A stretch of DNA of 64,000 nucleotides from Parcubacteria group bacterium (GTDB taxonomy: Bacteria > Patescibacteriota > Minisyncoccia > Phycocordibacterales > UBA2135). The stretch covers positions 100,927 through 164,926 of the forward strand of contig JACQLQ010000004.1 in the NCBI GenBank assembly GCA_016204045.1. The letters run 5' to 3'. The position numbers were made by a program, and so were the translations under genes. Numbering within the stretch: position 1 is the first letter of the stretch; each line of letters starts with the position of its first letter. Below the pieces are notes generated by a model, which worked only from the letters and a program-made list of their open reading frames with translations, was not told where the DNA came from and made no database searches. Below are positions 36,892 to 40,399 of this stretch, one piece after another.

Positions 36892-37137
36892 TTATTTGGA
36901 GCGATGCGGACATCCAGCCCAACAACAGGGCCGACGCATCCCGCCTCTAAGCTTCGAGAGCGCCTTCGCAATACGGATACTCCTCGTCTCCGCTTTTTTG
37001 CCAGAGGTAACCCAGCAGATCCACTCATTGCGTGCGAGTGGTGTAATGTCCTCCCATACTGCTCGTGCCGCCTTGTCAGAAGCAATAGCCTTCCGTAAAT
37101 CCGTTGGCACTGTATGCAAAACTTCTTTTTGAGTCAT
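36892..37137 (-). CDS. YdeI/OmpD-associated (bacteriocin-protection) family protein
   Basis: VPTDLRKA..WEDITPLARNEWICWV.S.KK.ETR..RI..G.RRPCCWAGCPHR. Confidence 0.85.
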   Translation of the reverse strand: MTQKEVLHTVPTDLRKAIASDKAARAVWEDITPLARNEWICWVTSGKKAETRSIRIAKALSKLRGGMRRPCCWAGCPHRSK

Positions 37138-37222
37138 AGATTCATTTTGCATCAATTGCGCTGTTAGATAAAGTTAACTTTCTAAAAAGAAAAACCGTCC
37201 AGCGGAAGCCGGGCGGTAGTGA

Positions 37223-37982: not shown

Positions 37983-38159
37983 GATGCACCTCCTGTGTCA
38001 GGTGGAAAGTAAATAGTATCATATAAAACAGCTTCTGTCAAACCAACAAATTCTTGCGAAACGTTTTGTTTGGTAAAGAACGGTGCCTGTCCCCGTTTCC
38101 GTTTTGAATTGACTTATTGTCCCCAGGTTTGCTAGGATATCGGTTCTATACGTTTTACA

Positions 38160-38715
38160 ATATAAGGAAAGCAAAACACCCCTTTCGGGATGTTTGCTCG
38201 TAAGATTTCCTTACGTTTACGGAAAACCGTTCTTGCTTTGCAGGGGCGGTTTTCGTTTTCCCTGCGACAAGATTACTTGTCCCTTTTTGCATCGCCGTAC
38301 CCGGGAAGAGGCAAGTGTTCAACAGTTGAGGATTTCTTTTCTCGAGCTTTCTCGAGTTCCTCAAACTGACCTTCCTTGTTCCGTCCGGCGAGCCTTGATT
38401 GTCTTTCAGACATCTTGGCATGGTTTTGTCAGTCCATAAACTGCCAGCTCTACAGGGGTCTAAGCTGGTTATGTGCTAAGCGTCCCCTGTCGAGGGAACG
38501 ACCATTTCTCAGAGGAGAAACTTGGCAAACAAAAAGCTCTATTGGCCGAGGTTTGTGGGTTACATCAGTTCCCCGATGTTCCCCTGCGTTAGCAGGGTTT
38601 TCACCCCGCAAACACCCGCCACTAGAGCTTTTGACTTTTGTTCGAGTATTTGTTTTGCTAAACCATCGGCCGCCTTTCTTTTAAACCCCATAACCTCGAA
38701 AGACAGAAGGTTACC
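38160..38715. ncRNA. Candidate large structured non-coding RNA (~550 nt), class unknown, strand uncertain (minus slightly favoured)
   Basis: No credible ORF. At least ten helices readable by eye, including nested multi-branch domains; promoter-like elements at both ends. Confidence 0.6.
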
Positions 38716-38758
38716 TCCTAAGTATACGCCTACTGGATAAAGTCAACAAATCCAATTC

Positions 38759-38767
38759 TGTGGATAA
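38759..38767. promoter_or_regulatory. DnaA-box consensus
   Basis: TGTGGATAA exact match; single copy, function unproven. Confidence 0.35.
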
Positions 38768-38831: not shown

Positions 38832-39032
38832 TTAGATACCGTACAGGTGTGCCTTTGTGACTGTTGAGGGACTGACCGAAGAAGGGACGTGTTTTGTTCG
38901 GGAAACCTCCTTCACGAAAGAGCGCGTCTCACTGATTGCCTCACGTATAAAACCCGAGGTCGCAGAGTTCTGAGCCATCTCATCAAAGTCCTGAAAGGGC
39001 TTATTTTTTTGTTTTTTTGGCTTGATTTTCAT
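38832..39032 (-). CDS. Small hypothetical protein overlapping the end of the SDH gene
   Basis: 66-aa ORF directly downstream of the protease; no motif. Confidence 0.3.
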   Translation of the reverse strand: MKIKPKKQKNKPFQDFDEMAQNSATSGFIREAISETRSFVKEVSRTKHVPSSVSPSTVTKAHLYGI

Positions 39033-39966
39033 TGTTTTTCTTTGCTTTTACTTTACCTTGAGCTGACGGGGTTGGCGTGAACTCAAGGAGCTTTATTTCT
39101 TGTTCGTCTGTATGGTTTCGTATTTGGAGCGAAAGACCGAGTGCTTCCATGATAACTTCGAGATCACCTTTCGCGTTTTCCACAGCAAACCCAAGTTCCG
39201 CAAGCTCTTCCGTATCTATTATGAACTCGTGGGACGGGTAATCATACACCATACGGTGTATAACTGGCTTTGCCTTTTCTGCACTCCAACCCATATAGCG
39301 TAGCAAAATGCGAACGCCGTATTGTTCACCAATATCAAGGGCGCGGGCATATTCCGTGATGCTCTTTGGATGTATTTGATTGTAAAGACAACCGCTCGTG
39401 TTTCCAGAAAACTCAATGGCAAGTTTTATGACATCTTGCAGTCGCATCCTGTTTCTTGTGCGATGAAGGATGAGTTTGGTTGCTATGTCCAAATTTTCTA
39501 CCGCGTGATTCTGTATTTGCTCGAGGGATTTATAACCATTCAACGCCGATTTGAATGTGTCCACATCTCCTTCCTGTTGCTCTGGTATCTGTACGTCAAG
39601 GGGCCCGAGTTCTGAAGTCGTCGCCATAACGAGCGTCTCCCCCGCAAGAGAGATGAGGGTGCCCGCACTCTTTGCATAGGTAGGAACCACAATGTTTACG
39701 CGCTTAGTGTGTTTCCGCAGCAACTTCACTATCTTATAGGCGGACTCAATATGGCCGCCCGGAGTTTCCAAAATAACATCGAGCTCATCAAAATTTTTGC
39801 CGCGCAGCTTGTTTTGGGTCAATATGACCGACGCTGGTGTGACCGTGCCCATACGCAAGAGAAGAGCTGGCTTTTTTCGCTCAGCCACAAATGCTTTCAA
39901 CTGCTTTGCGAACTTATCTTCCTTCGGCGCTGAAGCGGCTACTTCGTTCATATCGTTGCTGATCAT
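39001..39966 (-). CDS. SDH-family (ClpP/crotonase-fold) serine protease
   Basis: LDVILETPGG, VVPTYAKSAGTLISL, SELGPLDVQ and YPSHEF; start reassigned to MISND. Confidence 0.88.
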   Translation of the reverse strand: MISNDMNEVAASAPKEDKFAKQLKAFVAERKKPALLLRMGTVTPASVILTQNKLRGKNFDELDVILETPGGHIESAYKIVKLLRKHTKRVNIVVPTYAKSAGTLISLAGETLVMATTSELGPLDVQIPEQQEGDVDTFKSALNGYKSLEQIQNHAVENLDIATKLILHRTRNRMRLQDVIKLAIEFSGNTSGCLYNQIHPKSITEYARALDIGEQYGVRILLRYMGWSAEKAKPVIHRMVYDYPSHEFIIDTEELAELGFAVENAKGDLEVIMEALGLSLQIRNHTDEQEIKLLEFTPTPSAQGKVKAKKNNENQAKKTKK

Positions 39967-40123
39967 GATAACAGAATGTAACCTATAGTAAAGAATGGAA
40001 ATGGTGGAAATGGGGACCTTGTGGGAATGGAGGGAATAGGGACAGTCACAATTGTTTTTTTTGGAAACTCCCCAGAGTAAAGCGCGTCGTCCAACAACTG
40101 ATTGAAATGGTTTTAGAAGGAGG

Positions 40124-40399
40124 CTATTTAGCGGGTTGGTTGGTCTTCGCTTTTCCGGCCATGCGTTCGTGCTCTGCGGTAATGAGCTTTCTTGATTCGT
40201 CGCCGTCGCCATGGACACGGCGAGTCTGCGCCTTGAAGGTGCGCATGTGTCTCCGGGTGGAGTTCGAGAGCCGCTTTGGCATCCCGTTAGAAACAGTGGC
40301 TACCGCCTGCTTGCCCGCCGTAGCTTTAGCGGAGGCGGGTGATGACGTTTCTTTAGTCTTTTTAGTTTTAGTTGATACTTTGGGCATAAGTAGCTCCAT
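40124..40399 (-). CDS. Small basic hypothetical protein carrying an in-frame palindromic repeat
   Basis: K/R-rich ORF with GGGG SD; PASAKATAG is encoded by the repeat. Confidence 0.5.
   Translation of the reverse strand: MELLMPKVSTKTKKTKETSSPASAKATAGKQAVATVSNGMPKRLSNSTRRHMRTFKAQTRRVHGDGDESRKLITAEHERMAGKAKTNQPAK
40314..40339. repeat. CPR-type short palindromic repeat inside an ORF
   Basis: CCCGCC-GTA-GCT-tt-AGC-GGA-GGCGGG. Confidence 0.7.

Follow-up and report, generated by a model that had tools for sequence, protein, structure and literature searches.

A structured, conserved transcription unit around a 46-amino-acid peptide gene in a Parcubacteria accessory island

A peptide gene within a structured region

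The region at positions 38160–38715 of the window, the 64,000-nucleotide stretch of Parcubacteria group bacterium DNA analysed here (contig JACQLQ010000004.1), occurs once in its own genome and lies between two minus-strand genes: a gp30.3-like phage gene (37524–37982), which has a strong promoter of its own at 38013–38041, and a gene for a ClpP-like SDH protease (39001–40218). The features between them (Table 1) follow an order that recurs in Patescibacteria: a promoter, a leader of roughly 300 nt, a small open reading frame (ORF), a 3′ element, a terminator and an inward-pointing −10 box.

Table 1 Features of the cassette, in window coordinates.
Feature	Positions	Strand	Remarks
DnaA-box 9-mer, exact TTATCCACA	38759–38767	minus	upstream of sense promoter
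Sense promoter, predicted	38721–38749	minus	−35 TTGTTG 38744–38749; −10 TATACT 38721–38726
5′-terminal leader hairpin(s)	38670–38713	minus	predicted folds; weak alone, z 0.08
Element U, predicted switch strand	38660–38671	minus	complementary to stem 3′ strand 38544–38554
Leader domain	38527–38632	minus	long irregular stem, three-way-junction cap, U tract end; z −6.95
Leader three-way-junction hairpins	38582–38597; 38562–38579	minus	
Variable spacer hairpins of leader	38430–38520	minus	z −2.3; not alignable between families
Start-stop minigene (Met-Asp-stop)	38429–38437	minus	15 nt upstream of ORF
Small protein P0001, 46 aa, hydrophilic	38273–38413	minus	purifying selection; in no family library
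Dual-strand 3′ element	38222–38265	both	near-invariant in 14/18 cassettes, diverged in 4
Predicted H-type pseudoknot	S1 38260–38265/38240–38245; S2 38247–38254/38222–38229	minus	
Variable hairpin	38200–38214	both	between pseudoknot and terminator
Intrinsic terminator, sense mRNA	38168–38197	minus	covarying hairpin in homologues
Predicted cis-antisense RNA, ~95 nt	38168–38262	plus	three hairpins; complementary to whole mRNA 3′ UTR
Predicted antisense promoter(s)	−10 TACAAT 38156–38161; TTGACT-18-TAGGAT 38109–38138	plus	

The original prediction interpreted this interval as an undescribed large non-coding RNA in a CPR accessory island. Its structural claims hold up well. All 12 helical pairings that we checked are present at their positions, ten as exact reverse complements and two with imperfections, and the segment 38140–38720 folds better than 100 of 100 dinucleotide-shuffled sequences on either strand (z −7.73 plus, −6.71 minus), with sliding windows limiting the signal to about 38100–38660. 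Searches of Rfam 15, at gathering score and at E-values up to 10, place no family on the region at gathering score; the best E-value there is 0.38, a chance-level match, and the one family reaching the gathering score is a distant tRNA-Asn. Extending the search to an E-value of 10 on 12 close loci and nine prophage loci likewise gives no match on the cassette. Neither covariance models nor hallmark motifs of tmRNA, RNase P RNA or group I or II introns match within the region, as had been stated, and the tmRNA and RNase P RNA of the 673-kb genome are found elsewhere. As a separate observation, ARAGORN calls two tmRNA genes (G000 C4:105009–105460 and C4:195663–196060), one of them permuted, with different tags. 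An attC site was ruled out by size and missing R boxes, according to commonly held criteria for such sites.

The same prediction held that the gap contains no credible ORF, and on this point it was mistaken. The minus strand at 38413–38273 encodes 46 amino acids and takes up 25% of the interval. Homologous loci (L numbers) were fetched from genomes and metagenomes and 18 non-redundant copies were analysed; duplicates (L018, L020 and L027), loci of the own genome and a 14-residue match (L022) were left out before counting, L029, where the contig ends, was also left out of the promoter counts, and L021 and L029 were left out of the leader counts. Across codons 4–41 of the 18 copies, third positions are variable at 38 of 38 codons and second positions at 11 of 38, and mean pS is 0.78 versus a mean pN of 0.11. 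No copy carries an in-frame stop, whereas stops interrupt the other five frames in 7–18 of the 18. Thus, this segment is a protein-coding gene under purifying selection, and its homologues conserve a reading frame, the outcome that the original prediction itself had named as speaking against a non-coding RNA. Two other candidate ORFs were set aside: a 43-amino-acid ORF at 38560–38691, which matches no family, and an 88-amino-acid ORF at 38155–38421, as frames other than that of the peptide are broken in the homologues.

The charged, hydrophilic peptide (GRAVY −1.56; best 19-residue window −0.97) has no hydrophobic segment or membrane helix. It has 25 other close protein relatives, and a wider profile collects 671 proteins at an E-value of 0.01. 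No match was found in Pfam, NCBIfam, PHROG, PADLOC or PDB, no named match in a PDB sequence search and the ESM Atlas, and no likeness to known toxins in family and sequence libraries. Some family members of 84–92 amino acids (P0027 and P0032) are tandem duplications of the peptide within one chain, and P0039–P0044 probably are as well, judging from length and score. These duplications hint that the peptide may act as a dimer.

The conserved reading frame bears directly on the view that the region is a single ornate non-coding RNA of about 550 nt. Folding z-scores of −7.7 and −6.7 and the lack of an Rfam match favour such an RNA, but a conserved frame with saturated synonymous sites, 671 protein relatives whose distant members lack the RNA scaffold, and poor conservation of the helices within the ORF make it highly improbable. 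Specifically, the three helices of the long arm proposed at 38292–38391, which lies over the ORF, are paired in 93%, 68% and 44% of cells across homologues. The best of these, TCGCCG/CGGCGA, is indeed retained, although its retention on the sense strand is largely forced by the amino acids; the CTCGAG hairpin is the one paired in 44%, and the consensus fold across the ORF is weak (−4.6 kcal/mol, 8 pairs). A pseudoknot suggested for ACAGGGG/CCCCTGT and CCAGCT/AGCTGG cannot form as one minus-strand structure, because a 2-nt loop would have to span a 7-bp stem, and both sites fall in the variable part of the leader. What survives is a real structured, conserved transcription unit in a CPR accessory island that is absent from Rfam, rather than one non-coding RNA. 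As judged from sequence comparison, its structured parts are the 5′ leader and 3′ untranslated region (UTR) of the peptide gene, and its most conserved middle is coding.

The start of the gene has features of its own. No motif resembling a Shine–Dalgarno (SD) sequence precedes the ORF in any of the 18 cassettes, and the start region is mostly paired in predicted folds. A start-stop minigene lies 11–17 nt upstream of the start codon in 10 of 18 cassettes, compared with 3.8 expected, and in 58 of 429 control genes.

The leader domain

Transcription of the sense strand is predicted to start near 38714, from a promoter 307 nt ahead of the ATG, and a promoter is found 244–330 nt upstream of the ORF in 13 of the 17 cassettes scanned. 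Both the TATACT box and the DnaA box that had been reported here are present, although the exact DnaA 9-mer occurs in 20 copies genome-wide and is thus not specific.

The most prominent structure of the leader is a long capped stem. In an alignment of 11 leaders, its 27 pairs (positions 38532–38632) are formed in 87.5% of cells and 14 of them have changed on both sides, a result matched by none of 500 shuffles; controls in which the strands were slid reach at most 56% pairing. Wobble cells comprise 26 G-U versus 11 A-C, which favours the minus strand. Leaders outside this alignment also fold as a long capped stem. A model of the leader, R1, finds only its own locus among 151 genomes of the order and matches neither the remaining leader families nor the prophage loci, and therefore the leaders of L006/L016, L023, L025/L031 and L030 are best called analogous by fold, a likeness short of demonstrated homology.

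A second, competing structure is predicted upstream. In 10 of 16 leaders, including that of the window, the 11-nt element U pairs with the 3′ strand of the stem better than any of 25 shuffles; U is not found in L006 or L011 and is weak in five other leaders. In the alignment, a change in L005 is tracked by U and not by the inner strand of the stem. For the leader of the window, the U-paired fold (−68.3 kcal/mol) and the closed stem (−69.9 kcal/mol) lie 1.6 kcal/mol apart, and the U-paired fold is the predicted minimum when the transcript is cut at 38543. Similarly, an early cut of the transcript leaves 16–41 bases from upstream paired with the domain in 15 of 16 leaders, and a late cut only 0–10 in 14 of 16. 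A U tract (at least six of eight positions) follows the stem in only 10 of 16 leaders, and a further switch helix, U2, outperforms every shuffle in just three of 16, all of one family. On these folding models the leader would be a two-state switch, probably an attenuator. Unlike usual antiterminators, the switch strand here would capture the 3′ side of the terminator, which is an unusual arrangement.

The shape of this domain also recalls the C4 RNAs of phages P1 and P7 and the CI RNA of P4, in which a small ORF is preceded by a long leader that contains a three-way-junction RNA with an upstream complementary site. By analogy, the leader domain could itself be a small RNA of about 105–190 nt that ends at the U tract and acts on sites within its own transcript, with the ORF as the gene it switches off. 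The three-way junction and the upstream site U, laid out as in a1/seqA, agree with this idea, as does a weak C4 similarity on the plus strand (17.5 bits, E 2.2), although that score is far below the gathering cut-off of 45 for RF01695. Upstream pairing is found in 10 of 16 leaders, but the downstream target near the start codon is absent (0 of 17 leaders beat all 12 shuffles). Moreover, the complementary strand sits inside the stem rather than in loops, and the C4, c4-2 and c4-a1b1 models match none of 12 homologous loci at E-values up to 10. We consider a regulator of the C4/CI type improbable here, and prefer to view the leader as a switch acting on its own mRNA.

The 3′ element and a predicted antisense RNA

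Immediately following the stop codon is a 44-nt motif that is 94.5% identical in 14 of 18 cassettes, compared with 46% identity at third codon positions. Its exact pattern occurs in two of 401 genomes of the order, both of which carry the ORF. On the minus strand the motif is predicted to form a pseudoknot, and on the plus strand it would give a hairpin of 15 bp, accompanied by a short U tract, in which three G-U pairs are invariant; cells are paired in 99% for the antisense hairpin versus 77% for the sense strand. Selection on both strands would account for the near-invariance of the element.

Among the 14 near-identical elements, which show no double changes, the pseudoknot scores above all shuffles in 12, ties in one and is not found in one. 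The four remaining cassettes (L006, L014, L016 and L030) carry a diverged element at the same place before the terminator, with letters that differ in both stems. In each of them the pseudoknot is the best within 400 nt and is equalled by none of 30 shuffles, and two of 60 real genome pieces reach a pseudoknot score of 35. The same four elements still fold as a hairpin of 17–19 bp on the antisense strand. Folding models thus show that the 3′ element keeps a predicted sense pseudoknot together with an antisense hairpin across its diverged copies, with the covariation of the pseudoknot resting on these four copies, two of which are close relatives. A function as a read-through signal was ruled out by the spacer between stop codon and pseudoknot, which is 5–12 nt and reaches about 190–290 nt in cassettes with two ORFs.

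The antisense hairpin is part of a longer candidate transcript that ends short of the ORF. The segment 38168–38262 folds with a z-score of −6.19 on the plus strand versus −4.66 on the minus strand. The original prediction had noted signals on both strands, which is borne out: the plus-strand G-U pairs belong to this separate predicted antisense RNA, and the promoter-like site TTGACT-18-TAGGAT is present on that strand. Directly beyond the sense terminator, 11 of 13 cassettes carry an inward −10 box, which is an exact TATAAT in eight of them. Among 111 loosely called control terminators of the same genome, 8 have a −10 box and none an exact TATAAT, and shuffled sequences lead one to expect 3.2 and 0.7 of 13, respectively; the homologues are kin, and P values from these counts are therefore overstated. 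A second promoter-like site, 130–142 nt from the stop codon, has the best promoter score in 9 of 13 cassettes. These predicted promoters face into the cassette and not towards a neighbouring gene.

Alternatively, there may be no antisense RNA, and the plus-strand hairpin and −10 boxes could be insulators or by-products of a bidirectional terminator, leaving simply an mRNA whose leader is structured and whose 3′ end is protected by a pseudoknot. AT-rich tails do yield chance −10 matches, at the frequency given above, the antisense U tract is short (4–5 U) and weak in L006 and L016, and L014 has no −10 box past its terminator. Against these points stand the eight exact TATAAT boxes and the G-U pairs that serve only the antisense strand yet are kept in diverged copies, and we regard this explanation as quite improbable. 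The predicted antisense RNA may in some cases also contact the leader, in the manner of the Fst/RNAII and SprA1 systems, whose antisense RNAs make further contacts near the 5′ end: pairing beats 12 of 12 shuffles in three of 12 cassettes and fails to do so in the other nine, with the additional sites at −46 in the window and at −92 in L017 and L026.

Distribution, proposed mechanism and known systems

The cassette is patchily distributed. A BLAST search with the region gave no long match in 60 relatives, and long DNA matches turn up in G225 and G305, two of 400 further genomes from the order; six more match at the terminator hairpin only. BLAST and tblastn searches against phages and plasmids gave no match, and DNA contigs from three runs of a single study contributed nothing further. 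From these groundwater runs, the YdeI/OmdA gene at 36892–37155 of the window recruits many contigs of other organisms. Close cassettes sit at unrelated places, next to a portal gene, a serine recombinase and GHKL ATPase, DNA methylases, an EcoRII-C nuclease, DUF3800 and a tRNA, or housekeeping genes. Distant relatives of the peptide are encoded in five of 400 other genomes of the class and on ten IMG/VR contigs; the close-type ORF, the exact 3′ motif and the second ORF described below are all absent from IMG/VR.

Several surroundings are recorded here for their own sake. LOOT RNA (RF03000) is found 1.2 kb from the cassette in L005 (2738–2860, 81 bits) and 2.7 kb from it in L030 (5693–5813, 86 bits). 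In L014 (1584–3919) the cassette adjoins 5S and 23S rRNA, group I intron matches and an intron-type ORF. A 116-amino-acid ORF without Pfam match directly follows a distant peptide gene (L035:1117–1467) and is presumably GIY-YIG-like. Finally, L011 (G077, ~960–1620) has a similar scaffold around a different, basic ORF of ~48 amino acids with no Pfam match, comprising a long capped stem, a minigene hairpin before the AUG, a terminator, an antisense hairpin with U tract and an inward promoter; neither U pairing nor the pseudoknot was found in it.

Taken together, these features lead us to favour, tentatively, a stand-alone peptide gene whose ~550-nt mRNA would be governed by a leader switch and an antisense RNA, much like a type I toxin–antitoxin (TA) system of the 3′-overlap kind but with a cytosolic effector. 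As the leader is transcribed, U would first pair with the 3′ strand of the stem to give a read-through fold, and the long stem would later close onto the U tract to give a stop fold, allowing just a fraction of the transcripts to extend into the ORF. The pseudoknot would stabilize the 3′ end of the mRNA. The antisense RNA would end at the 3′ element, read as a terminator hairpin, and would pair with the 3′ UTR to form a duplex that could be handed to RNase III, which the genome encodes. The last step is the weakest of the model, and a doubtful one: should antisense synthesis stop, through island loss or phage shut-off, production of the peptide would begin and would inhibit growth, which would stabilize the island or abort infection.

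The main rival keeps the same RNA control but gives the peptide another role. It would be harmless, an accessory factor of the moron type that serves, for example, in superinfection exclusion, anti-defence or regulation, and the leader and antisense RNA would only time a short burst of expression that follows entry. Distant members are stand-alone prophage genes; the peptide gene directly follows a terminase gene in L042 and L044 and directly precedes a portal gene in L013 and L044, which by gene order is a moron position. Several prophage relatives have a leader of ~200 nt with a hairpin and U tract. The antisense parts are lacking in distant relatives (L033–L037 and L042–L051), where no antisense promoter occurs at a fixed place in the five genome loci tested, the prophage loci being judged by eye. 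One of these, L033, has a short leader and a strong SD, and thus the family is apparently expressible without an RNA antitoxin. In addition, four close cassettes hold a second small ORF between the peptide gene and the pseudoknot (L006:1741–1887, L016:3254–3406, L030:3225–3392 and L014:1033–1263), with a conserved Cys/His/Gly N-terminal motif and no family match below an E-value of 0.02. However, the peptide shows no likeness to described anti-defence or exclusion proteins, and heavy double control is commoner for harmful products. We consider such an accessory role less likely than the TA-like model, which remains our preferred one.

The literature searched describes almost no regulatory RNAs or RNA-antitoxin modules in CPR bacteria, and we found no paper on type I TA systems or antisense RNAs of Patescibacteria/CPR or on the peptide. 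This phylum is absent from the type I TA phyla named in the opening of the abstract of PMC12390103, and the cassette is not described in the abstract and outline of PMC13551039 or in the passages covered of PMC5737381, whose supplement of 224 motifs, like that of PMC8594479, could hold related motifs. The cassette provides two RNA motifs that covary and have no entry in Rfam 15, and it brings to light a peptide family that is widespread yet unannotated and turns up repeatedly in prophages and beside restriction systems. It also offers a compact, testable case in which both strands of one sequence are under constraint to fold. A toxic peptide would establish a new class of soluble type I toxins; a non-toxic one would be a candidate phage–host effector. 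It is rather unlikely, but conceivable, that the cassettes make up a new TA-like family of Patescibacteria that combines a soluble 46-amino-acid effector, a 44-nt element selected on both strands, as a pseudoknot of the mRNA and as the terminator of the antitoxin RNA, a kinetic leader switch that gates transcription, and tiny peptides that are swapped (L011) or added (L006, L014, L016 and L030).

The cassette shares features with several known systems. In size and helix density it resembles the ROOL, OLE, GOLLD and LOOT RNAs, but it has no Rfam match, contains a selected ORF and does not conserve its pairs over the full length. The antisense-controlled attenuators of pT181 and pIP501 have leaders of ~300 nt with mutually exclusive folds and a U tract at the end; in the cassette, unlike in those systems, the 3′ end is the site of the predicted antisense RNA, and it is the 3′ side of the stem that the competing strand would capture. 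SymE/SymR and RalR/RalA pair a soluble toxin with an RNA antitoxin, as proposed here, and PMC11352940 describes cytosolic type I toxins, which are longer nucleases. SymE and RalR are likewise longer, nuclease-type proteins, and no sequence similarity to the peptide was found. SymR overlaps the 5′ end.

The closest parallel is with the 3′-overlap type I TA systems of Firmicutes (txpA/RatA, bsrG/SR4, bsrE/SR5, Fst/RNAII and SprA1/SprA1as), which also have ORFs of fewer than 60 amino acids. As summarized in PMC7430163 and PMC8594479, these systems use a convergent cis-antisense RNA on the 3′ side, of about 100–200 nt (predicted here to be ~95 nt), have RNase III available and lie in mobile or prophage DNA, as does the cassette. 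PMC7430163 describes RatA as sharing about 120 nt with txpA and as triggering RNase III, and according to PMC8594479 the antisense RNAs of Fst/RNAII and SprA1/SprA1as overlap the mRNA but not the ORF. Unlike these systems, the cassette has a hydrophilic peptide without membrane helix, no SD/anti-SD pairing, a leader of ~300 nt with a giant branched stem, and also a predicted 3′ pseudoknot. Because the peptide lacks a hydrophobic helix and there is no SD that could be sequestered, we do not file the cassette as a member of the class, and describe it instead as a unit that would work like a type I TA system.
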